Part shown: positions 5,831 to 64,000 of the stretch, piece after piece | How positions within the stretch are numbered: the stretch's first letter is position 1 | Layout: each line of letters opens with the position of its first letter | From: Candidatus Parcubacteria bacterium | GTDB lineage: Bacteria > Patescibacteriota > Saccharimonadia > UBA4664 > JBIOIQ01 | Assembly (NCBI GenBank): GCA_963718875.1 | Contig: OY970378.1 | Span: 1,011,691-1,075,690, forward strand | DNA length: 64,000 nucleotides | Reading direction: 5' to 3' | Notes under the pieces: model-generated | Told to the model about the DNA's origin: nothing | Seen by the model: the letters and a program-made list of their open reading frames with translations, nothing else | Database searches by the model: none | Position numbers and translations under genes: made by a program

Positions 5831-5888
5831 GACCCCATCGTCTAGCGGTTAGGACATCCCGGCATTAGCCGGGACAACCGGGGTTCGA
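5831..5888 (+). pseudogene. truncated tRNA-Glu-like gene fragment (5' acceptor strand, D arm, altered anticodon arm, 5' T stem; no 3' end)
   Basis: 26 nt plus 14 nt identical to the intact tRNA-Glu at 6149; anticodon arm replaced (TCCCGGCATTAGCCGGGA); no complementary 3' acceptor strand downstream. Confidence 0.5.
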
Positions 5889-5901
5889 GGTTACGAAGTC
5901 T

Positions 5902-6141
5902 ATGATCTATACAGCATATATTCTTTTGACAAGCACGGGGAGCTTTTATATCGGTCAGACCAATGATATGACCGATCGCTTAGTGAGGCACGCTCGAGGG
6001 GAATGCAGTTTCACAAAATCTAGGCTGCCTGTTACTCTTGTGTATAAGGAAGAATTTACTTCTAGATCTCAGGCTGTAACGCGAGAAAGACAACTCAAAT
6101 CTTGGAAAAGCACGCAAAGGCTTAAGGCTCTTATAAATTAG
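5902..6141 (+). CDS. GIY-YIG nuclease family protein (UPF0213 / YhbQ-like, 79 aa)
   Basis: YILLTSTGSFYIGQTNDMTDRLVRH...RERQLKSWKS has the GIY-YIG core; sits between the tRNA fragment and the intact tRNA-Glu. Confidence 0.7.
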   Translation: MIYTAYILLTSTGSFYIGQTNDMTDRLVRHARGECSFTKSRLPVTLVYKEEFTSRSQAVTRERQLKSWKSTQRLKALIN

Positions 6142-6148
6142 ATGGCAT

Positions 6149-6223
6149 GACCCCATCGTCTAGCGGTTAGGACACCAGGTTTTCATCCTGGCAACCGGGG
6201 TTCGATTCCCCGTGGGGTCACCA
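6149..6223 (+). tRNA. tRNA-Glu (anticodon TTC)
   Basis: 75-nt cloverleaf folded by hand; acceptor GACCCCA/TGGGGTC; anticodon loop TTTTCAT; T arm CGGGGTTCGATTCCCCG; encoded CCA. Confidence 0.9.
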
Positions 6224-6225
6224 AT

Positions 6226-6259
6226 AAAAATACCCGAGCTTGTCTCGGGTATTTTTATT
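6226..6259 (+). terminator. Rho-independent terminator after tRNA-Glu (bidirectional-looking)
   Basis: aaaaatacccgag-cttgt-ctcgggtattttt: perfect stem flanked by an A run and a T run. Confidence 0.6.
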
Positions 6260-6422
6260 GGTGAGTGCCGCAGGCACAGCGGACCTCGGTTGAGAGTGAG
6301 CGAAAGCTAACGAGGGGTTTGATAACGAGGAAAGCGCACACAAGTTTACTTGGGGCACATGCCAATGTTATACAAAAATTCCCCGTCGGGTCACTATTCG
6401 TTATCCCTTTTCTAAGCCATGC

Positions 6423-7528: not shown

Positions 7529-8122
7529 ATGCACAGCTTCATCGACTTGCATTGCGGATCTCGGCTATTCGTCGAGGTGGAACTTGACGAATCCATCCGA
7601 ACGGCCCAGGCTCGTGAACGCATCGAGATCATCTTGCTCGATCGGCAAATCGGCCGTCTTTTCCCTACCCTGAAGGGGTTCATGTACTACCCGCCCGACG
7701 AGCGGTGGAATGTGACCAGAATCGTGGAGCGCCTGCACAACCTCCTGAAGGAGCTGTTCGGGGACGACTACACGGTTTCCTACTGCAAGGACCGCGAGAG
7801 CGACGACATCATCATGCGCGAAGCTGATGGGTCCGAGCACGTCGTTGAGCCCAGCCGGCCACTAGGTCGCTTCGGCGCGACCAGGAGGCTTGTTATGCCG
7901 GCTAGTATCGAAGAGTACTTGGACCGTATTGCCAGAGAAGCAGCCGATTACTTCGACCGAGGTGATAGAGGAGCGGCTATCAGCTGCGTTCTGTCTCTGC
8001 TGCAAAGTCATCCCGACACTCAATCCATCGGGCGCACTTCTTCAACTTTGCCTCTCCTATTGGCGGGATGGGAAGGAGGTAGAGACAGGTTCATCGAAAC
8101 GATTACCGGGTTCCAGCCTTGA
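7529..8122 (+). CDS. hypothetical protein (GC-rich islet)
   Basis: 197-aa ORF; SD AGGAGAG 4 nt before ATG; local GC much higher than the flanks; possible terminator-like hairpin near 8150-8185. Confidence 0.45.
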   Translation: MHSFIDLHCGSRLFVEVELDESIRTAQARERIEIILLDRQIGRLFPTLKGFMYYPPDERWNVTRIVERLHNLLKELFGDDYTVSYCKDRESDDIIMREADGSEHVVEPSRPLGRFGATRRLVMPASIEEYLDRIAREAADYFDRGDRGAAISCVLSLLQSHPDTQSIGRTSSTLPLLLAGWEGGRDRFIETITGFQP

Positions 8123-8216
8123 CCGCGTTCATCGCGTTCCCCTGCTCCGATCGAAGCTTACGGCTTCGGCCGGAGCTTCTTTCGTTATGCCCCTCGTGGA
8201 ATTGGTTGTGTCGAAA

Positions 8217-8783
8217 TTACTCTATAATATCCGCAGAAATAGACAAGTAGAATAAATCAATCTTAAGATCATTGTTAAGCCTGTATGCAACAACCCAATT
8301 GTTAGCAGAGATGCCAATGTTACCCAGCCCCGCATAATTTGAGATAATCCTTGATTTGCTTATTTTATCTCTGGACTCGGTGTGCCCAGTAAAGTCCCAG
8401 GGTAAGTTTGCGCCTAGTGAAGCGCTGGATTTTGTCAGGTATGTAGAAATAGACTTTGCTGCATCGGCCTTAGACAAATCTCCGTTACCATCTGTGCTCT
8501 GACGAACAACCAATACTTTGTCTGTCATGTAGGTATCGAGTTTTGAATACTCACCCTTATTGATTAAGGCGTTAATTTCTGCCACGACCTGCGGGGTTTT
8601 ATCAACTGGTTTTTGGGATGTTGGTTTGCTTGGTGTCTGTGAGGTAGATTGAGTGTTGTTCGAGCTCTTATTCGCTTCATTTCGAGTTTTTATCACATAC
8701 CAACCAATGCCTACAATCATAGCAATTAGAACTATTGCAAACAGTACTTCAACTGCGCTAAAACCGTTTTCATTTTTTTTCAT
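8217..8783 (-). CDS. type IV pilin-like / pseudopilin protein (prepilin N-terminal motif)
   Basis: N-terminus MKKNENG|FSAVEVLFAIVLIAMIVGIGW: G|F..E(+5) prepilin cleavage/methylation pattern plus a hydrophobic helix. Confidence 0.5.
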   Translation of the reverse strand: MKKNENGFSAVEVLFAIVLIAMIVGIGWYVIKTRNEANKSSNNTQSTSQTPSKPTSQKPVDKTPQVVAEINALINKGEYSKLDTYMTDKVLVVRQSTDGNGDLSKADAAKSISTYLTKSSASLGANLPWDFTGHTESRDKISKSRIISNYAGLGNIGISANNWVVAYRLNNDLKIDLFYLSISADIIE

Positions 8784-9011
8784 TACGCTCTCCTTTCGTA
8801 GATACTATCAAATTGCTAAGGTAATTAATATAGCGTAGCAAAGGAAAAATCGCCTTTACGCTACACGAGCCAGGACTATACTGGTTCTATATCACGCCGG
8901 TAGTATTTGCGATCTCATTTCCGGAATGTAATCGTGTTTGCTTACTCTGGAAATTAAATTTCCGAAGCATCAATTCTGGTATGCACTCGTCGCACCAATG
9001 ACCTGTCCTTA

Positions 9012-9326
9012 TTATCTAGACTTAGACTGCTTGTCAATTAGGACTTTTTGCGCCCATGGGCTTACTGGCTTGTCGGTGCGATGAATACAACCAACCCAGC
9101 AACAAGGGCGGCGCTTCCCTTCTAGCAGCTCCTCTCGGGTTCGCTCTATGCGACGCTTTCTTGTCTCGATTTGCTTAGCGTTCTCTACCCAGCAAATAAA
9201 CTCATTCCGACCGAGCGGTGTGAGGCCTTGCCACCGTTCTAAGACAGCCTCGTCTGATAAAAGGACGTCCCGTAAATCAGTTGGCATTTTGTGTGCCACT
9301 CCATCTGCTATTTCAGTCTTAATCAT
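9012..9326 (-). CDS. small protein, YdeI/OmpD-associated-like family (tentative)
   Basis: 104 aa; C-terminal ...AKQIETRKRRIERTREEL resembles the conserved tail of the YdeI/OmpD-associated domain. Confidence 0.35.
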   Translation of the reverse strand: MIKTEIADGVAHKMPTDLRDVLLSDEAVLERWQGLTPLGRNEFICWVENAKQIETRKRRIERTREELLEGKRRPCCWVGCIHRTDKPVSPWAQKVLIDKQSKSR

Positions 9327-9616
9327 AGCTTTATTCTACTACAGTATCTAATCTACTGCCTCTTTATGCAGCCTATGACGAAGTTAACAAAGTATCCCTA
9401 TTGGTCAATAGCAAACCGCCCGTGCTTGCACCGGTGCTATCAAAGCTGCTACAAACAATACATGAAGTGGCTGATTGTCTTAGCGGTGGTGAGTTTATAT
9501 TTTTTCGGTACGACGCGACTTGCCAATGTGGCTTTGGCGCAGTTTCGACAGGTGGAGAATATTTATACCAATGCCGTTAATCATCCTAATCAGTTGGTGG
9601 AAAATTTTTGACTCTC

Positions 9617-10372
9617 TTAAGGTTTTAGATCCATGGCCTGGAAAATTTGGAGAGCATGCCTAAACGGATCTTTGCTGACTGGTATTTGGCCGGTAAAAGG
9701 AAAGTTTAAAGTGTAAATCAAAAACAGCACTCCAGCTACAACGATTGTTAACATGGCTGTGAGCAAATGTTGAGCCCTGAGGCTGCCCATGATTAAAAAG
9801 TAGGATGAGCCAATGGTAATAAGTCCACCGCCAATTAGTAACGGCCAAAAAACTATGGGCAAGCTGGCTTCGCCAGCCAGGTGACGCAGGTGCCTTTGTT
9901 CTTCGAGGGTGTGCAAACGATCTTGGGCAGCATCCGACGCATTGGCGTTTTTGTAAATGGTCCAGATAGGATTTATGGCATCAGCCTTGGTATGAGTCAT
10001 TACGGCGCCGTGGTTGGTCCACTCTTTATCCATGATGGTATGAGCGTAATCGTAAAACGCTTTTTGCGCGTCAGAGCGAATTGGCTCTGGAAAGTTTTCC
10101 GTATCGCGAAAAGCAACCACCAGTGAGGCAGCCTCGCTGGTTACTACTTGCTGGGAGGCAGAATAGCGTTCCCAAACGGCAAACACGACGAATGCTAAAA
10201 CAACAGCGTAAATTAAAGCAATTGCACTAAATATGTAGCCGACAATTGCTACCTCACGCTTAAGATGTTTTGTATCCAGCAAAAGTCTATGCGCCCACAG
10301 TCCAAACAGAGCAATGACTACAGATATTGCCAGGAAAGCAATTGCAGAAAGTATAATCGATAAATCTATCAC
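9617..10372 (-). CDS. hypothetical membrane protein (DUF4239-like, tentative)
   Basis: 251-aa ORF with N- and C-terminal hydrophobic helices. Confidence 0.5.
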   Translation of the reverse strand: MIDLSIILSAIAFLAISVVIALFGLWAHRLLLDTKHLKREVAIVGYIFSAIALIYAVVLAFVVFAVWERYSASQQVVTSEAASLVVAFRDTENFPEPIRSDAQKAFYDYAHTIMDKEWTNHGAVMTHTKADAINPIWTIYKNANASDAAQDRLHTLEEQRHLRHLAGEASLPIVFWPLLIGGGLITIGSSYFLIMGSLRAQHLLTAMLTIVVAGVLFLIYTLNFPFTGQIPVSKDPFRHALQIFQAMDLKP

Positions 10373-29255: not shown

Positions 29256-29308
29256 TGGAGGGCCGTCCGTGACTCCCCGGCTAGTGGGCCTGGGTAAACT
29301 TCTCGTCT
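29256..29308. repeat. 14-nt duplication of the tRNA-Lys 3' end (TGGAGGGCCGTCCG) fused to conserved motif copy 1 (TGACTCCCCGGCTAGTGGGCCTGGGTAAACTTCTCGTC)
   Basis: direct repeat of the tRNA 3' end about 90 bp from the tRNA; motif also at 37451-37487 and, diverged, at 63892-63927. Confidence 0.55.
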
Positions 29309-29358
29309 CGATGGACCCTTTCCAGTGAAAAAGCCCCACTTTCGTGAGGCGTTTTCAC

Positions 29359-29434
29359 TGGAGGGCCGTCCGGGACTTGAACCCGGAACCAATTGCTTAA
29401 GAGGCAACTGCTCTGCCGATTGAGCTAACGGCCC
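29359..29434 (-). tRNA. tRNA-Lys (anticodon CTT)
   Basis: 76-nt cloverleaf folded by hand: GGGCCGTTAGCTCAATCGGCAGAGCAGTTGCCTCTTAAGCAATTGGTTCCGGGTTCAAGTCCCGGACGGCCCTCCA. Confidence 0.9.
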
Positions 29435-36027: not shown

Positions 36028-36423
36028 CTAGCTGTTGGCTGAGGGTGCTCCGGGTCGGTCGCTTCGGCCTTCGAAGAACGAGCCCACCTTGTTCTGCTTG
36101 CGCGTCTTCTTGCTCCCGATGTTCATCCATACCTTCGTCGGGCAGCCGACAACTTCTCTTGCGATCCGATCCGCAATCCTGTTGACCGCGTTAGGGGCTG
36201 CTTTGATGCGATCTGGTTGGTAGTACACCTCGAGCCTGATAACGCAGTGCACCCGTCGGTTGATACCAGTGGGGTAGACCGCCGGGATGACGCCGTCGAC
36301 CGGATCGATAACCGGCAGCGCCTTGCAAGCTGTCTCCTCGGCGAGAATCTGGTCGATAGCAGCCACTTGGTCATCGGTAAAGTTGGGTGATCCGAATCCC
36401 GGATAGTAATCGGCGTACGGCAC
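36028..36423 (-). CDS. hypothetical protein (GC-rich islet)
   Basis: GTG start with AGGAG SD; GC-rich; no family recognised. Confidence 0.35.
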   Translation of the reverse strand: MPYADYYPGFGSPNFTDDQVAAIDQILAEETACKALPVIDPVDGVIPAVYPTGINRRVHCVIRLEVYYQPDRIKAAPNAVNRIADRIAREVVGCPTKVWMNIGSKKTRKQNKVGSFFEGRSDRPGAPSANS

Positions 36424-36491
36424 AGCTTTCTTCTCCTGAGTCTGGAGTCGTAATTGTGGTGGCGACTCGTTTATGCAAGCAAACAATATAC

Positions 36492-36535: not shown

Positions 36536-37342
36536 ATGATTGTTCAGATGGACAAACAAATTTTATCCACACAACTAACAGAATATGGACTTGAGGAGAT
36601 CGAAGCTCAGGTGTATTTGTTTTTGCTTGAGGCAGGACCACAGACGCCCCTGGAGCTGTCCAGGGCTATAAATATCGATAGATCCAAGGTGTATCGCAGC
36701 ATCGAGAAGCTAACCACTCAAGGCTTTATCGAGCAAAGTCATGCTGCATGGGGCAAAAAGCTGAGGGCAGCGACCCCAGATAACATCTCGAGACTGCTGA
36801 AGCAAGAGGAAGAAGCGCTGCAAAATAAAAAAGAAAGTTTGCCGGATTTGATAAAAGGACTTTCGGACATCTCAACGATCGTGCAGCGAGAGTTTGAAGT
36901 CAAGCACTATCGTGGGCAGGAGGGGCTGCGTCAGATGCTCTGGAATCATTTGGCTGCAACTACCGATATTGTGGCTTTAAGCCACAAGAACAAGAACGAC
37001 ATCGTGGGCAAGAGGTTTGCTGAGAAAATTAGGGCTGAGCAACTAGAGCGGGGAATCGTGCTTTATGAGGTCGAAAACGAAACGGACCAAGGCGACTATT
37101 GGTATACGGATATAGGCACCAAGAATAAAGAAGCCTGGGAGAAGTGCTACAAATCACGTTATATTCCGCCAGAAGTACTGGAGATCACGCAGTATGTAGC
37201 CGTTTTCAATCACACTGTGTCCATTATTAACTGGCAGGACGGGGAAGAGGTAGGCCTGGAGATCATCAATAAGCCATTTGCCGATATGCAGCGTCAGCAG
37301 ATCTGGAAGTTTTGGGAAATTGCCGGGGAAACTTCGGCTTAG
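36536..37342 (+). CDS. TrmB family transcriptional regulator (wHTH N-terminus plus TrmB C-terminal domain)
   Basis: LTEYGLEEIEAQVYLFLLEAGPQTPLELSRAINIDRSKVYRSIEKL TrmB-type HTH. Confidence 0.55.
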   Translation: MIVQMDKQILSTQLTEYGLEEIEAQVYLFLLEAGPQTPLELSRAINIDRSKVYRSIEKLTTQGFIEQSHAAWGKKLRAATPDNISRLLKQEEEALQNKKESLPDLIKGLSDISTIVQREFEVKHYRGQEGLRQMLWNHLAATTDIVALSHKNKNDIVGKRFAEKIRAEQLERGIVLYEVENETDQGDYWYTDIGTKNKEAWEKCYKSRYIPPEVLEITQYVAVFNHTVSIINWQDGEEVGLEIINKPFADMQRQQIWKFWEIAGETSA

Positions 37343-37756
37343 TAGCGTCGTAGGGCACTACTTGGTGCACATGTTGGGGTGGACGCAACCCGTTTTATAA
37401 GCGCAGCCGTTCCGGTAATTTGAAATTGAAGTGGCTGGTGCGCCTGGAGGGACTCCCCGGCTCGGTGGCCGGGGTAAACTTCTCGTCCCTATGATTGTTA
37501 TCTGGTGCCCCTAATCGGACAGCTTTCAAACCCAGGTTTCCATGACGCGATCAGTATTCTGTATCATTCCACGCTGGAAGCCTAAGGCCCGGTACGACAT
37601 CGATTACACCTGCTTACACAAGCTACAAAAAGAAACCTCTTTGTCGTTATACAGCGGGCGGGCTCTGACGAACATTGGCCGAACGTCCAGAAATTGCTTG
37701 TTTGTTGCCGTTGCGTCCTGGAACTTCCGCCAGGCGGCGTGATCGAGCCTGGAAAA

Positions 37757-38137
37757 TCAGGCTGCTCGCTCTGATGAGACTGCTTTGGCCGTTGCAATAA
37801 CTGCATCTCGAGCTGCTTCAAGATTAGCGCTAGCCTCTTCAAGAGCTTTCGCGGCAGCATCGCTGGCTTCTCTAGCCTGAAGATACTCTTCCATGGAGGC
37901 CCTGGTTTCACTTGTGTGACTTTCTACAAGTGCGGGATCAATACCTAGATCGCGTGCGGCATCAACAGCAAGCGCCTCTCTCTGCATATTCCATACGGCA
38001 TCATAGTCCTTGCCTTCTTGGGTAGATCGTTCCCAAGGCGTATCAGTGGCTCGTGCAACGTCTAGCGACTCAGCCGCTCTGCTTGCATTGTCCATTGTTT
38101 CTTTTGATATGTCTTCGTACCCTTGTGACTCGCCCAT
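37757..38137 (-). CDS. hypothetical acidic alpha-helical protein (islet cargo)
   Basis: 126 aa from MGESQGYEDISKE; GC-rich. Confidence 0.4.
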   Translation of the reverse strand: MGESQGYEDISKETMDNASRAAESLDVARATDTPWERSTQEGKDYDAVWNMQREALAVDAARDLGIDPALVESHTSETRASMEEYLQAREASDAAAKALEEASANLEAARDAVIATAKAVSSERAA

Positions 38138-38359
38138 ATGAAAAAGTTCCTTCTTTAAAGCATATAGGATCAATGTTACGCCAAACACTCATTTACACAA
38201 GTTGTTTGATCAAGTGGCCTTAAACGCAAGGCGCCTCCCAGAACTGGCGAGTAGCCTTGCCTGGGAGGCGAATAAGGACGATGGTGACGGGACTGGCTGG
38301 TGACGCCTGTCATGCGACAAGCTCGTCAAGTGACCAGGGCGAGGCGAGGAAATTGGCGA

Positions 38360-38794
38360 TCAGCTACTCGATGGCTTGAGTGCAGAGGGATCAGTGGAAG
38401 CAATAGACGCCTCCAGTAGCCTGCGCAGGGAATCCGGGGTTTCGGGCCCGAATAGCTTGTCGAGCGTTCCTGCTTCCTCCACATTCGCAGCAAACCCTCC
38501 TTCGATCAGTTGACGATGCCGCTCCGCACGCACATCTGGAGGTTCGGGAAGGTAGATGTCACAGTCCCAGTGACCGTCTTCCATAGCATCTTCTCTGAAC
38601 GAGGAGTCTTCTTCGCCGAAGTACTTGGACAAGTCTGTCACTCGGAAGACCAGGTCTTGATCTCCACAATAGAACACATGCCCCGGTCTGACTTGCCAGT
38701 GGGCTTGCAAATCAGTATCGGCTCGGCACAGCTCGATGTACTCGTCCGTGGCCCAAACAGGCCGTTCCTGAAGGTCATGGCCTGAATTGCTCAC
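38360..38794 (-). CDS. hypothetical acidic protein (islet cargo)
   Basis: GTG start 10 nt after a GGAGG SD; GC-rich. Confidence 0.4.
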   Translation of the reverse strand: MSNSGHDLQERPVWATDEYIELCRADTDLQAHWQVRPGHVFYCGDQDLVFRVTDLSKYFGEEDSSFREDAMEDGHWDCDIYLPEPPDVRAERHRQLIEGGFAANVEEAGTLDKLFGPETPDSLRRLLEASIASTDPSALKPSSS

Positions 38795-39290
38795 TTTTGA
38801 CGAGCCTCCTCCGCATCCGGGACTTCCGGTGTTGCGACAAGCCAAGCGCTAAGGACTAGTACTCGGGTTGTCGCAGCGGAGGAATAGGCTACTTATACTG
38901 AAATAAGTTGAGTTAGGCAAGCACAAGCGTAACGCAGGCTCCTACTATGCGTCTGTCTTCTTGTCCTCTGCTTGGACTTGCTCCCTTGCTAGTTCGATCA
39001 GGGCCGCGACGAACAAATCGACCCTCGGCTCTTTCTTCTTAACTCCAGTTACTCTGACGCGGCGCTGCGGACGGGGATTGGGTTGCTTTATTGGTACATC
39101 TCATTAATTACCGCGATTGTCGCGCCGACACGAGATATCTGCAAGAGCAAAAAACGGCATTAATGTTGACAATTTGAAACAACCAGAGCATAATATTGTC
39201 CACGAATTGGCATCTCCCGTTGAGTTTCTTTAGCAGGCTGCCGCAATGCAGCAGTCGCCTGCTTCCCGGAACTCAACGCTAGGAGAACTG

Positions 39291-39629
39291 ATGCGTTTCA
39301 TTGACCTGTACAACGTGAGCGTGGAACGCTACTGGACGGCACAAGCCACTCGAGAAGACGGCTCAGCCAACAGCTTCATCAACGTAGCCACCGATGTGGC
39401 CGAAGATCTTGTGACCACTCTCGAAGACTCTGCCGAGCTGCTGGCCGACATTGTCAGGAACTGCCCACCTCCAAACCTTGGCGAGCTCGAAGCCAGCAGC
39501 TGGATCGAGTTCGTCGTATTTCTTTTCTGGAACATGGCCGGCGAACGCGCCAGAACAAACGATCGCATCACGGCCGAGGATGATCGACGCGATCGCATCG
39601 AGGCCCTTCAGAGGGGATCCAGGGCCTAA
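39291..39629 (+). CDS. hypothetical protein (islet cargo)
   Basis: AGGAGA SD 4 nt before ATG; followed by a 9-bp GC hairpin at 39649-39681. Confidence 0.45.
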   Translation: MRFIDLYNVSVERYWTAQATREDGSANSFINVATDVAEDLVTTLEDSAELLADIVRNCPPPNLGELEASSWIEFVVFLFWNMAGERARTNDRITAEDDRRDRIEALQRGSRA

Positions 39630-39648
39630 CGGCCGACAGACTCGCACT

Positions 39649-39690
39649 GGCCCTGCATGCTCACATCGAGTGTGCAGGGCCGTTTCATTA
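39649..39690 (+). terminator. hairpin GGCCCTGCA-n15-TGCAGGGCC with a weak U tail
   Basis: perfect 9-bp stem immediately after the stop of 39291-39629. Confidence 0.3.
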
Positions 39691-39918
39691 AGTATTGTTT
39701 GCAAGAAAAAAATGAATCGACATTGAACCACACTGCGAGAAGTTGAATCACTAGGCAACATTACAGACTTCAAGCGGACCTATCGAAAGGGGATAGAGCA
39801 ACTTCTTACTTAATTGCCTGACATTTTGCTGCTCACGACAAGTGCCCCTAAATACAAAAAAGAGACTTTGCTAAGTCTCTTTTCTATACTTTTGTGTAAT
39901 TACACAGGTGTTTTTCGA

Positions 39919-39994
39919 TGGTGCGCCTGAAGGGACTCGAACCCCCGACACCCAGATCCGGAATCTGGTGCTCTATCCACTGAGCTACAGGCGC
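39919..39994 (-). tRNA. tRNA-Arg (anticodon CCG)
   Basis: 76-nt cloverleaf: GCGCCTGTAGCTCAGTGGATAGAGCACCAGATTCCGGATCTGGGTGTCGGGGGTTCGAGTCCCTTCAGGCGCACCA. Confidence 0.9.
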
Positions 39995-40050: not shown

Positions 40051-41349
40051 ATGCCTAAATCAATCAAAATTACCGGTGGAAGACCCTTGCGGGGCGAGGT
40101 TACTATTAGTGGAGCCAAAAACGCCGCTACCAAGATGATGATAGCGAGCCTGCTGACGGACGAGCCGGTAGTTTTGCACAATTGCCCGCAGATTGGGGAC
40201 GTTGAAATAACGGCCGAAATTTGCCGGGCGGTGGGTGCAAAAGTGACGTTTGACGGTTCAACGGTTAGCCTCCATACGCCAAAAATATTGCGGCCAGCAG
40301 TTAAGCGGTTAAGCCAAAATAATCGCATTTCGGTTTTAGCTATTTCGCCTTTACTGCACCGCGCCGGTAGCGCTGCTGTACCAAAAGTATCGGGTGACTT
40401 TATTGGACCGAGGCCGGTTAACTTTCATCTTGATGCTTTGCGAAAAATGGGAGCAAACATCGAAGAAACTAGTAAAGGCTACAAGGCAAAAGCTACAGGA
40501 CTCCATGGAACGTCCATCACCTTGCCGTATCCAAGTGTTGGTGCGACGGAAAACGTTATTTTTGCGGCTGTTCTTGCCCAAGGTAGGACGATTATCAAAA
40601 ATGCGGCTACTGAGCCGGAAATAACCGACATCATTAAGATGCTCCAACGCATGGGAGCGATCATTGAGTTTCGGGCCAACCGAACCATCATTATTGACGG
40701 CGTAGAAAGACTGGGCGGCGTAGAGTACAGCATAATCCCCGACCGCATTGAGGCCGCTTCATATGCCATTATGGCCGTAGCAACGGACGGGGACATTTTG
40801 GTTAAAGGTGCAAGGCAAGAAGACCTCATGACCCTCCTCAATACCATAAGACGAATTGGGGCAGACTATACAATTGAGGAAGGCGGAATTCGCTTTAAAA
40901 GGATAGGCCGGACATTAATTGGTATTGAGCTTGAAACCGATACCCATCCCGGATTTATGACTGACTGGCAACAGCCTATGGTGGTACTCTTAACCCAGGC
41001 TGAAGGGATTTCGGTAGTACATGAAACGGTTTATGAAGATCGTTTTGGGTATGTTGAAACACTAAAGGCGATGGGATCAAGCATTACGGTTTTTAGTAAA
41101 TGTTTGGGTGAACTACCTTGCCGATTTAACGGTGAGGGTTATAAACACAGTGCCGTCATTAAGGGTCCTACGCCTTTACGTTCAGCCAAAGTGGTGATTC
41201 CAGATATTCGGGCCGGGATGGCTCAAGTCATCGCAGCATTAATAGCCGAGGGCACTTCGGAGTTGACGGGGTTAGAGCACTTGTTGCGCGGATACGAGAA
41301 CTTGCTTGATAAATTGAAGTCCGTGGGCGCGGATTTTAGCGCCAAATAG
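40051..41349 (+). CDS. murA: UDP-N-acetylglucosamine 1-carboxyvinyltransferase
   Basis: 432 aa; EPT-fold MurA colinearity (KISGAKNAA-type N-terminus, catalytic Cys region). Confidence 0.85.
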   Translation: MPKSIKITGGRPLRGEVTISGAKNAATKMMIASLLTDEPVVLHNCPQIGDVEITAEICRAVGAKVTFDGSTVSLHTPKILRPAVKRLSQNNRISVLAISPLLHRAGSAAVPKVSGDFIGPRPVNFHLDALRKMGANIEETSKGYKAKATGLHGTSITLPYPSVGATENVIFAAVLAQGRTIIKNAATEPEITDIIKMLQRMGAIIEFRANRTIIIDGVERLGGVEYSIIPDRIEAASYAIMAVATDGDILVKGARQEDLMTLLNTIRRIGADYTIEEGGIRFKRIGRTLIGIELETDTHPGFMTDWQQPMVVLLTQAEGISVVHETVYEDRFGYVETLKAMGSSITVFSKCLGELPCRFNGEGYKHSAVIKGPTPLRSAKVVIPDIRAGMAQVIAALIAEGTSELTGLEHLLRGYENLLDKLKSVGADFSAK

Positions 41350-43802: not shown

Positions 43803-44361
43803 TCAGCCCAGCTGTTCCAACACCCACGCCGCAACCCCAGCTGCATAGTTGCGGCAGTACTTCACTGCCTTGCCCGTGAGATAAACGCGCATTCCTCCGG
43901 AAAGCACGTTGTCGTGTGCCTGAAGATCTGACAGCACGGCGGAGTAGTTCTCGGGGTCAACCACAATGAATGGACCATCTTCGTGGTTCTTGATGCACCC
44001 CCAAATCATACTTGGGCCACCGACGTCGATACCGGCGAAAGAAGAAGGAGGGGTGGGATAGAGATTGCAAACCACTGCGTCTATATGACCGTAGCCTGCT
44101 GCAGCCAGCTCTGCCACATCCTCCTCCACGGATCTCCGAGCCAGAATGGGTCCGTGGATCCCGGGGTGCAAGGTCTTAACTCGACCTCCCATCATCTCTG
44201 GCTGACCAGTGACCTGCGCGACTGAGGTGAAGTCGATGCCCGCTTCAGCCAGAAAATCTCCTGTACCGCCACTGGCCACGATCTCCCAGCCCAGCTGCTT
44301 GAGCCGTTTTAGCGAAGACCCGAAGGCCTTTGGTGTTTGAGACGGAAATCAGAACGCGCAT
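43803..44361 (-). pseudogene. stand-alone PurH N-terminal IMP cyclohydrolase (MGS-like) domain gene, copy 1, frameshifted
   Basis: [20 protein letters not shown] reads in one frame and [15 protein letters not shown]...GGRVKTLHPGIHGPILARR...IDAVVCNLYP in the next; the shift lies in a TTTT/AAAA run at 44307-44310; no AICAR formyltransferase domain follows. Confidence 0.5.
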
Positions 44362-44466
44362 ACGACGTGCTCCTTCTGGAGAAATGGCCGGAACAGTTTC
44401 CGACGGGGTAATTATGGGTTCAAGGATAAAACTAAGCAAGCGTAAGCGATTAATAAGTGTTGGGAA

Positions 44467-44495
44467 GCAGGACGAGGCGCGAACGCCCCGTCCTG
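44467..44495 (-). terminator. GC hairpin CAGGACG...CGTCCTG downstream of the IMPCH-like gene copy 2 (no U tract)
   Basis: paralogous to the hairpin at 43755-43788. Confidence 0.3.
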
Positions 44496-44507
44496 GTGGG
44501 CTGTCGA

Positions 44508-45068
44508 TCAGTGCGGAGGTGGTCCCATCTCTCTAAACAGATCAAGGACAGATTGCGAGTACAGCGTTGTGTACTCGTACGTCTTAAGCGCCAGATTCCA
44601 CCTTGTGTAATCAGACAGCTGCCCTCCGTTGCTGCCTAACTCATCGATCACACTGGGATAGTCACCTGGATCTACTAGCACAACCACATGTCGCCAGTTG
44701 GCTGCTGCCGTCCAAAGGAGGGCATGCCCTCCATGATCTCCTCCGTCAAGACCAGGCTTCCTTAAATTGCAAACGACCCAGTCGATTGGACGAGAAAGGA
44801 TTGCCTTCAACCAAGCCATGTCGGACTCGACGTCACGGTGAGCTCCAATAGCAGAAAAGATGCCTGGATCTACTGCCCTCCGCCTTCTACCACCTTCAAC
44901 TTCCTCGAAGAGCAGAGCTGGTTTGTATTCACGGATGGGCCGACGAGTTGTACCCAAGGCTTCCTTAGTGCCTCCGCCGGCCATGAGGGTCAGTCCGAGT
45001 GCTTCGAGCGTGTCTGCCAGCTCTTCCAAGCCAGTCTTGTCATCAACGCTCAACAGTGCATACGCCAT
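44508..45068 (-). CDS. stand-alone PurH-N (IMPCH/MGS-like) domain protein, copy 2, degenerate catalytic motifs
   Basis: ALLSVDDKTG, GGGT and IDWVVCNL conserved, but the GGRVKTLHP motif is replaced by GGRRRRAVDP; GC-rich. Confidence 0.45.
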   Translation of the reverse strand: MAYALLSVDDKTGLEELADTLEALGLTLMAGGGTKEALGTTRRPIREYKPALLFEEVEGGRRRRAVDPGIFSAIGAHRDVESDMAWLKAILSRPIDWVVCNLRKPGLDGGDHGGHALLWTAAANWRHVVVLVDPGDYPSVIDELGSNGGQLSDYTRWNLALKTYEYTTLYSQSVLDLFREMGPPPH

Positions 45069-63775: not shown

Positions 63776-63891
63776 TGACTAATACTATCAAAAAGTTCGA
63801 TTACCCATCAGGGGTAACAAAAATAATCACTTAGCGAAGGGATTATTTTATGGGGCGAGTGATCCTTCGACTACGCTCAGGATTTAGAATG

Positions 63892-63927
63892 GGCTCCCCG
63901 GATCGTCGCCTGAGAGTAAACTTCTCG
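63892..63927. repeat. diverged copy 3 of the tRNA-associated end motif (GGCTCCCCGGATCGTCGCCTGAGAGTAAACTTCTCGC)
   Basis: shares CTCCCCGG and GTAAACTTCTCG with copies at 29270-29307 and 37451-37487. Confidence 0.4.
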
Positions 63928-63929
63928 CA

Positions 63930-63987
63930 CCATCCTCTTCAAAACAAAAACCCCAGCTTTCGCTGAGGATTTTGTTTTGGGGCCGTA
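63930..63987. repeat. 58-bp direct repeat copy 2
   Basis: see 63119-63176. Confidence 0.6.
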
Positions 63988-64000
63988 CGGTGAGTAGGGT

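Follow-up and report, generated by a model that had tools for sequence, protein, structure and literature searches.

A 2.46-kb islet lies downstream of the tRNA-Arg(CCG) gene in a 64-kb stretch of contig OY970378.1 from Candidatus Parcubacteria bacterium (hereafter the window; all coordinates are window positions unless a locus is named). The islet is bounded by a direct repeat of the tRNA 3' end, deviates from its surroundings in composition, encodes three small acidic proteins (A, B and C) and contains no integrase gene. Directly inside the displaced tRNA end it carries a short conserved module, consisting of RCGAGAAGTTTAC and a 7-bp hairpin rich in guanine and cytosine (GC), which recurs at other tRNAs and in other organisms. 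The best reading places the islet inside a stack of T-loop integration scars. More specifically, it is tentatively interpreted, with a confidence falling just short of probable, as a decayed, horizontally acquired cargo islet without an integrase within a T-loop recombination scar at tRNA-Arg(CCG), resembling the cis-mobilisable elements (CIMEs), a label chosen because repeats resembling attachment (att) sites are present without an integrase.

The tRNA genes were called with ARAGORN and Rfam. The last 20 nt of tRNA-Arg(CCG), TGGTGCGCCTGAAGGGACTC (39919-39938), recur in the same orientation as TGGTGCGCCTGGAGGGACTC at 37436-37455, with 19 of 20 positions identical and 2,463 bp between the two copies. 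This is the sole further match in the window at three or fewer mismatches, where shuffled sequence gives an expectation of 0.01. Identity runs from tRNA nt 57, in the T-loop, through the encoded CCA and no further, and the flanks are dissimilar on both sides. One border is an intact tRNA gene and the other a directly oriented piece of that tRNA. The repeat of the tRNA terminus that the original prediction had placed here is thereby confirmed, and its description of the enclosed DNA as GC-richer was borne out by computation. The GC content of the islet is 0.520, compared with 0.469 in the rest of the window, ranking in the top 2% of equal-size windows, and its tetranucleotide distance of 0.351 (vs. 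0.211 +/- 0.034) is the window maximum, with the peak at 37251-39713. GC content at third codon positions (GC3) lies 2.5 and 4.8 standard deviations above that of host open reading frames (ORFs) for B and C, respectively, while A is host-like or lower. The excess is uneven, with the ~220 bp nearest the tRNA being AT-rich.

The DNA adjoining the displaced tRNA-Arg end has a defined order, in which ...CATAGGG is followed by ACGAGAAGTTTAC and the hairpin CCCCGGC/GCCGGGG (37456-37487), and then by displaced tRNA-Arg nt 57-76, together spanning 37436-37502. Displaced 3' ends also occur at two more window tRNAs, namely 83 bp downstream of tRNA-Lys(CTT) (18/20) and 154 bp downstream of tRNA-Glu (17/20). 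A cargo-free sister copy of the module lies directly downstream of tRNA-Lys(CTT) (29359-29434), with the repeats 83 bp apart. The DNA inside the displaced tRNA-Arg and tRNA-Lys ends is near-identical, reading GACGAGAAGTTTACCC(C/A)GGCC..AGCCGGGG, and the exact 16-mer GACGAGAAGTTTACCC is found in the window only beside these two ends. A third copy, with a terminator and a decayed tRNA-like tail, sits at the window edge, and its parent tRNA gene would lie beyond position 64000.

A degenerate pattern fitting all three window copies matched four metagenome contigs, two of which (L092 and L090) share the same architecture. In L092 (GC 0.51), tRNA-Leu is followed by a terminator, GGCTCCCGGGAG, ACGAGAAGTTTACCCCGGCCGTAGCGCCGGGG, tRNA-Leu nt 58 to the end and a copy of the terminator, with a second, decayed unit in tandem, and L090 (GC 0.38) has the same layout. 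L092 carries AraC/ExsA, sugar-MFS and PAP2 genes, and at least one of the two module-bearing contigs is from a bacterium outside the Candidate Phyla Radiation (CPR). A 17-nt core of the module, CGAGAAGTTTACCCCGG, is near-identical in contigs of GC 0.38, 0.47 and 0.51. In all copies, a partial second tRNA copy, running from the T-stem 5' strand onward, follows an intact tRNA and its terminator, with the T-loop TTCG of the partial copy swapped for a 31-32-nt insert. The module hairpin is 94% paired across copies, including one compensatory pair. Two window copies of the module, and a longer form of it in locus L009, come with the terminator motif CCTCA(N)CGAAAG(N)TGGGG, which appears nowhere else in the sequences searched. 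Because an identical module adjoins the displaced ends of tRNAs with differing tails, and occurs beside such ends in unrelated bacteria, it looks like the end of an element family targeting the tRNA T-loop.

The distribution of these scars is patchy. In a survey of 72 tRNAs across the loci collected up to then, displaced 3' ends were found at three of the four tRNAs of the window, two of four in L009 and both tRNAs of locus L084, with none at the remaining tRNAs and none in the reverse-strand control. Being patchy between genomes and multi-copy where present, the displaced ends behave like traces of mobile elements. Two covariance models were used, R1 for the short module and R2 as a second module model; R1, run on 1.38 Mb of related loci, recovered only the module copies described above, those at 63880-63944 and in L092 and L090 included. 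The module was not found in viral contigs, and neither of its two forms gave more than chance-level matches in plasmids and phages.

A long form of the module is located downstream of tRNA-Glu in the window, of tRNA-Asp and tRNA-Arg(CCT) in L084, and of two tRNA-Arg genes in L009. Its parts (hairpin, ~57-nt insert and tRNA nt 59-76) are legible in all but the more divergent tRNA-Arg(CCT) copy. One hairpin arm is the reverse complement of the T-stem 5' strand plus T-loop and the other repeats that stretch in forward orientation, as in ATCGAACCGG ... CCGGTTCGAT, and the insert follows TAAYGAGGAA.GCGC.CA ... GAGCAC. The hairpin is 79.5% paired, compared with 23-42% in slid controls (n = 6 sequences), and three of the four pairs of the inner helix are changed on both sides, which is moderate evidence at n = 6. 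The long-form junction pattern had 0 matches in metagenome and viral contigs.

These units are stacked in L084 and L092. Downstream of tRNA-Asp in L084 (8394-10510 of that locus) lie two complete long-form units, an orphan gene, a third displaced fragment, a truncated unit and a homologue of B. The orphan gene (8627-9970) encodes 447 aa with no Pfam match, the B-family gene occupies 8001-8366, and the third fragment has a duplicate terminator and hairpin, with the break exactly after GGTTCGA. L084 thus holds three fragments and L092 tandem modules, compared with one clear fragment at tRNA-Arg(CCG). In L009 (3329-3703 and 1-255), tRNA-Arg(TCT) has downstream of it a fragment that represents the 3' end of tRNA-Arg(TCG), followed by a copy of the terminator and hairpin of the latter, indicating that units moved between tRNA loci. 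The tRNA-Glu locus of the window (5831-6396) is also layered, with a tRNA-Glu-like 5' part, a GIY-YIG ORF, the intact tRNA-Glu (6149-6223), a terminator, the long form and the displaced end (17/20, 6377-6396). The 5' part (5831-5889) is identical to the tRNA over its first 20 nt, has a different anticodon arm and breaks off directly after T-loop A58. The ORF between this broken part and the intact tRNA-Glu (5902-6141) encodes a 79-aa GIY-YIG nuclease (Pfam E 4.7e-12), which could be the enzyme involved or a second kind of element.

Table 1. Features of the tRNA-Arg(CCG) islet and of the related module copies in the window
Feature	Position	Strand	Basis
Long-form variant: terminator, hairpin, ~57-nt insert (TAACGAGGAAAGCGCACACAAGTTTAC...), displaced tRNA-Glu nt 58-76	6224..6396	+	nhmmer E 1e-4 to the L084 copy; 59 bits
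Cargo-free sister copy: terminator CCTCACGAAAGTGGGG, module, displaced tRNA-Lys 3' end (18/20)	29256..29358	-	R1 70 bits
Module and displaced tRNA-Arg end	37436..37502	-	16-mer match, alignment, R1 76 bits
Exact 10-nt direct repeat TTAGGGGCAC, distal copy	37505..37514	-	exact-copy count
Cargo protein A, 126 aa, isoelectric point (pI) 4.3, Ala/Glu-rich, GC3 0.38	37757..38137	-	best frame, log-likelihood ratio 0.27
Cargo protein B, 144 aa, pI 4.4, GTG start after GGAGGAGG	38360..38794	-	best frame; homologue family
Broken ORF tail (...RRVRVTGVKKKEPRVDLFVAALIELAREQVQAEDKKTDA, then stop)	38942..39100	-	translation
Cargo protein C, transcription unit, GC3 0.67	39166..39682	+	promoter/terminator scan, best frame
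Exact 10-nt direct repeat TTAGGGGCAC, proximal copy	39842..39851	-	exact-copy count
AT-rich terminator-type hairpin AAAAGAGACTT/AAGTCTCTTTT, within islet, 35 nt downstream of tRNA 3' end	39858..39883	-	inverted repeat I2 and terminator scan
Proximal repeat copy, tRNA nt 57-76 including CCA	39919-39938		TGGTGCGCCTGAAGGGACTC
Intact tRNA-Arg(CCG)	39919..39994	-	ARAGORN; Rfam tRNA 68 bits
Third copy: terminator and module, decayed tRNA-like tail	63880..63968 (module 63880-63944)	-	R1 55.6 bits

No integrase-like ORF or domain was detected in the islet, the broken ORF tail included, so family searches of the islet ORFs upheld the earlier statement that no integrase gene remains there. The tail was considered as a recombinase C-terminus and rejected, having no Pfam match at E <= 10 and none in plasmids or phages. 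The check outside the islet covered 10 other window ORFs, picked by size, tRNA adjacency or high GC; they proved to be housekeeping or other non-recombinase genes (MurB, transglutaminase-like, queuosine salvage, etc.), one of them without a Pfam match. No tyrosine or large serine recombinase and no replication genes were found among the ORFs tested. In addition, the ORF list and the family and Rfam searches revealed no tnpA or tnpB ORF and no recognisable omega RNA/reRNA at the islet. A TnpB/omega-RNA arrangement of scaffold plus guide, made attractive by a 3' tail that equals the tRNA sequence after TTCRA, was set aside as speculation, with no TnpB or TnpA and no supporting match.

The cargo genes are well supported as coding sequences. 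Under a codon model built from 28 long window ORFs, A, B and C each score highest among their own six frames, and all three products are acidic (pI 4.3-4.4), in agreement with the three small acidic ORFs originally described. The ORF of C (39291-39629) encodes 112 aa, or 127 aa from an alternative start at 39246. It is preceded by a sigma-70-like promoter, TTGACA-17-CATAAT (39166-39194; 11/12), and followed by a terminator-like hairpin (39648-39682), and C therefore forms a complete transcription unit. A 10-bp GC hairpin read from the sequence lies 3' of B (38232-38270). The hairpin originally proposed after A is weak.

Homology searches returned little for these proteins. A word-indexed search of a 5.8-billion-cluster database retrieved only the three queries themselves, nothing significant was found in Pfam, PHROGs, PADLOC or NCBIfam, tblastn against plasmids and phages gave no match, and PDB sequence searches gave only noise. 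C has a weak, sub-threshold match to DUF5069 (E 0.004). A full phmmer search recovered 19 remote homologues of B, mostly 94-121 aa long. A and C are thus orphans, and B is a real gene of an uncharacterised conserved family. An identical A-B contig is present in ERR12037361. The family domain is N-terminal (residues ~10-93), and in the alignment P12, W14, Q30, W33, G38, Y58, C78, D79 and P83 are invariant. The homologues have in common the motifs P-x-W-x-T and LQ..W.P..GDW, a C-terminal W-x-CD-x-Y-[LI]-P-x-P and three Cys. The AlphaFold (AF2) model built from the homologue alignment has a predicted local distance difference test score (pLDDT) >90 across the domain; it has no fold match in PDB or BFVD, and B matches no known family.

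B homologues mostly reside in ordinary chromosomal surroundings, and no toxin-like neighbour of the cargo genes was found. Given these contexts and the empty PADLOC, PHROG, Pfam and NCBIfam searches, the suggestion that the cargo serves immunity or anti-defence gained no support. In one protein (P0007) the B domain is fused to a response-regulator receiver domain, and in L093/L094 a B homologue adjoins a gene of the archaeal/eukaryotic ribosomal protein family S3Ae; the B family therefore reaches beyond small-genome bacteria. B as a recurrent tRNA-linked cargo was rejected as a rule, with a tRNA array nearby in two of nine distinct contexts, several of the others being short contigs unable to show one.

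The islet occupies a variable locus. MurA (40051-41349) matches metagenome-assembled genomes of Saccharimonadia (Saccharibacteria/TM7), with a best identity of 82%, and the window shares with its relatives the gene order tRNA-Lys(CTT), tRNA-Arg(TCG), ..., glyA, a variable stretch, tRNA-Arg(CCG) and murA. The stretch from glyA to tRNA-Arg(CCG) measures 5.6 kb in the window but 2.2 kb in L001 and ~1 kb in L035, each with a gene set of its own. The 80 related loci surveyed for gene content lack every window gene located between 34.4 and 39.9 kb. This variability in length and genes, together with the absence from related loci, indicates that the region downstream of tRNA-Arg(CCG) is a hot spot of gene turnover. 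The second tRNA fragment was not found in relatives. A 152-aa ORF at 36028-36486 (minus strand), outside the islet beyond a TrmB-like gene, has a GC3 of 0.67, like that of C, with no family match and nothing in related loci; foreign-looking DNA at the hot spot thus extends beyond the repeat interval. Within ~1 kb downstream of tRNA-Arg(CCG) in L035 (5124-5911 of that locus), the ORFs appear GC-rich by eye, and one resembles a DUF433-type antitoxin-like protein, also by eye only. In L002, tRNA-Arg(CCG) (5878-5953 of that locus) lies on the opposite strand relative to murA, with a 5-bp gap to murA, which suggests an inversion at the tRNA. Elsewhere in the window, a GC-rich patch (0.55-0.59) at 43803-45068 (minus strand) contains two separate short ORFs, one with an MGS-like domain and the other with only the first ~58 AICARFT/IMPCHase positions; the pair looks like a split or truncated purH.

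Under the preferred interpretation, an integrating element whose attP mimicked the tRNA from the T-arm to the CCA would have recombined in the T-loop, around nt 56-58. The tRNA would have been rebuilt with an element-borne 3' end and terminator, and the original 3' end (nt 57-76) displaced 2.46 kb downstream, presumably by an integrase of the tyrosine type. The module would represent a conserved end of the element, most likely a recombinase-binding arm. The integrase may later have been lost, or may always have been supplied in trans, leaving the islet either fixed or only cis-mobilisable, with the three acidic proteins as separately transcribed passengers. The order of these events, and the arrival of all 2.46 kb at once, are assumptions of the scheme. 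The cargo may instead have entered a pre-existing scar, since the TTAGGGGCAC pair brackets the cargo and the architecture at tRNA-Lys is cargo-free.

Several observations weigh against this interpretation. Neither an integrase nor a remnant of one was found in the islet or among the 10 other window ORFs tested. No precise empty site was obtained among relatives, whose non-coding flanks do not align; the closest relative (82% MurA identity) carries different genes here, and no circular junction was available. The cargo is a mosaic in GC3 (A 0.38, B 0.57, C 0.67, compared with 0.466 +/- 0.043 in host ORFs), the TTAGGGGCAC pair flanks the cargo inside the 20-nt repeats, and tRNA-Lys presents the same order of tRNA, terminator, module and fragment free of cargo. 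The 32-nt insert in place of the T-loop TTCG is unlike a simple attR. Near-identical modules at different tRNAs fit uneasily with a classical, highly site-specific integrase and would require either an easily retargeted one or another mechanism. The lack of a recombinase and of an empty site, the mosaic cargo, the TTAGGGGCAC pair with the cargo-free copy and the interrupted T-loop are the reasons for holding the interpretation tentatively. They also qualify the original description of a standard tRNA-attL...attR geometry. The repeat geometry itself holds up, on stronger evidence than that description had, because the conserved module next to the displaced end recurs, identically placed, at other tRNAs and in further organisms. 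However, one standard integrated element does not follow, given the missing integrase and empty site, the mosaic cargo, the cargo-free tRNA-Lys layout and the TTAGGGGCAC pair.

An alternative scenario, itself unlikely, is that the module is the mobile or functional unit, either as a miniature non-autonomous element seeking T-loops or as the gene of a small structured RNA whose 3' tail is tRNA-like, and that the GC-rich DNA arrived separately. A miniature element would persist only in dispensable partial tRNA copies, and the cargo would have come by ordinary illegitimate recombination. Such a unit would account for the near identity of CGAGAAGTTTACCCCGG across contigs of such different GC content, L092 included, for the repeated exchange of the T-loop TTCG of a partial tRNA for the insert, and for the terminator after several displaced fragments. 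The conserved hairpins with some compensatory changes, and the GIY-YIG gene between the tRNA-Glu-like part broken at A58 and the intact tRNA-Glu, also point in this direction. However, the predicted RNA folds of the module are no better than those of shuffles (z -2.7 to +1.2), and the covariation comes from only 5-6 sequences. Neither form of the module matches an Rfam family: only the tRNAs passed the gathering threshold, and E-value scans of two copies returned noise. No transposase or TnpB lies nearby, and the coincidence of the compositional anomaly with the repeat interval is left unexplained.

It is also conceivable, if doubtful, that a compact scar formed first at tRNA-Arg(CCG) and that 2.3 kb of cargo entered later at TTAGGGGCAC, through a 10-bp target duplication or by recombination between modules, in which case the 19/20 repeat would be the trace of an earlier event rather than the cargo boundary. 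The window contains exactly two copies of TTAGGGGCAC, in the same orientation and ~70 nt inside each islet end. The proximal copy runs on as GGCACTTGTCGTGAGCA, which on sequence comparison resembles the long-form module at tRNA-Arg(CCT) of L084. The tRNA-Lys scar, with its 83 bp between repeats, would be the cargo-free version; genes follow a truncated module copy in both L084 and L009, and the mosaic GC3 of the cargo agrees with this order of events. However, the hallmarks of a transposon duplicating 10 bp, such as a transposase or inverted ends, are missing, and similarity does not extend beyond the two 10-mers. A 10-mer match between two ~100-nt zones would arise by chance in roughly 1% of cases, which makes the pair suggestive only.

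That no mobile element was involved, with the 20-mer a relic of local duplication or of a decayed second tRNA and the GC excess reflecting gene-to-gene variation, is very unlikely: the GC difference (0.52 vs. 0.47) is modest, other window patches reach 0.55 and A is host-like or lower in GC3, but this explanation is largely refuted by the 16-mer and R1 results and by the interval being the strongest tetranucleotide outlier of the window, while the conserved neighbour of the fragment is common to other tRNA fragments and organisms, A and C lack homologues, B has remote ones only and related genomes contain none of the three.

Collectively, the islet taken by itself is of a fairly ordinary kind, tRNA-linked and lacking an integrase, in a host that is unusual, and the module is the part that merits attention, since it is common to other tRNAs and organisms and absent from Rfam. 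Gene gain and loss in Saccharimonadia and other CPR bacteria are poorly understood because their genomes are tiny and contain few recognisable mobile elements. With displaced 3' ends at three of the four window tRNAs, tRNA T-loops serve as repeated insertion points in at least some CPR genomes, and the conserved module in the scars offers a target for searches. If this module marks the end of an element family, it would provide a handle on the recombinase and on the flexible gene content, including the orphans A, B and C; should it be no more than debris of decay, the locus is an ordinary islet that lacks an integrase. A broader proposal, improbable as it stands, is that both forms of the module, the short one (RCGAGAAGTTTAC with its GC hairpin) and the ~57-nt long one bearing the T-arm-derived hairpin, mark an element or cassette platform of an undescribed kind that targets T-loops. 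Units of tRNA 3' end, terminator and module would be docked at tRNAs across phyla, where they would be stacked and would receive orphan genes with no resident integrase, perhaps through a recombinase or nuclease acting in trans. If true, the platform would span Saccharimonadia, another CPR-like lineage and at least one non-CPR bacterium.

Among known systems, CIMEs are cis-mobilisable, att-flanked remnants of integrative elements that lack recombination genes, as known from the literature on ICESt3 of Streptococcus thermophilus. The islet resembles them in having att-like repeats at both ends and only cargo between, with no integrase or transfer genes. Unlike for CIMEs, no cognate integrase-bearing element is known for the host genome, and mobilisation here is a prediction. 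Integron attC sites and the clusters of attC sites lacking integron-integrases (CALIN arrays) are short recombination sites conserved more in structure than in sequence. The long-form hairpin arms ATCGAAC/GTTCGAT resemble the attC consensus RYYYAAC/GTTRRRY at six of seven positions, and, as in CALIN arrays, small promoter-poor orphan genes lie between sites. In contrast to integrons, the sites are anchored on tRNA 3' ends, no IntI gene is present and C has its own strong promoter. No attC-type site or shared repeat or module separates A, B and C, only terminator-like hairpins.

In the tDNA islands catalogued by Islander (PMC4383910), an integrase gene is required by definition, and the tRNA 3' end is replaced while the old one is displaced. 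The islet shares with such islands the intact tRNA at one end, the 3' fragment in direct orientation at the other, and deviant DNA that is absent from relatives. It differs in lacking an integrase gene, in being only 2.5 kb long and in the conserved 32-nt T-loop insert before the displaced fragment. Tycheposons of Prochlorococcus are described (10.1101/2020.12.28.424599) as stacked integrations that push older elements inward and leave scattered partial tRNAs and degenerate remnants. A streamlined genome, tRNA-adjacent islands and partial tRNAs are features in common, with one clear fragment at tRNA-Arg(CCG) and stacks in L084 and L092. Tycheposons are defined by their tyrosine or large serine recombinases and replication modules, none of which was found in the islet or among the other ORFs tested, and are not known to carry the conserved short module. 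Finally, for the T-loop attP of the Ms6 type, editing the core alone retargets integration to other tRNAs with the arms unchanged (PMC1762012). Ms6 is a mycobacteriophage with its own integrase and a continuous 26-bp core, whereas the displaced T-loop is interrupted here. As in the Ms6 attP/attB pair, the block of identity runs from the T-arm to the tRNA 3' end, and the T-loop is the likely site of strand exchange.

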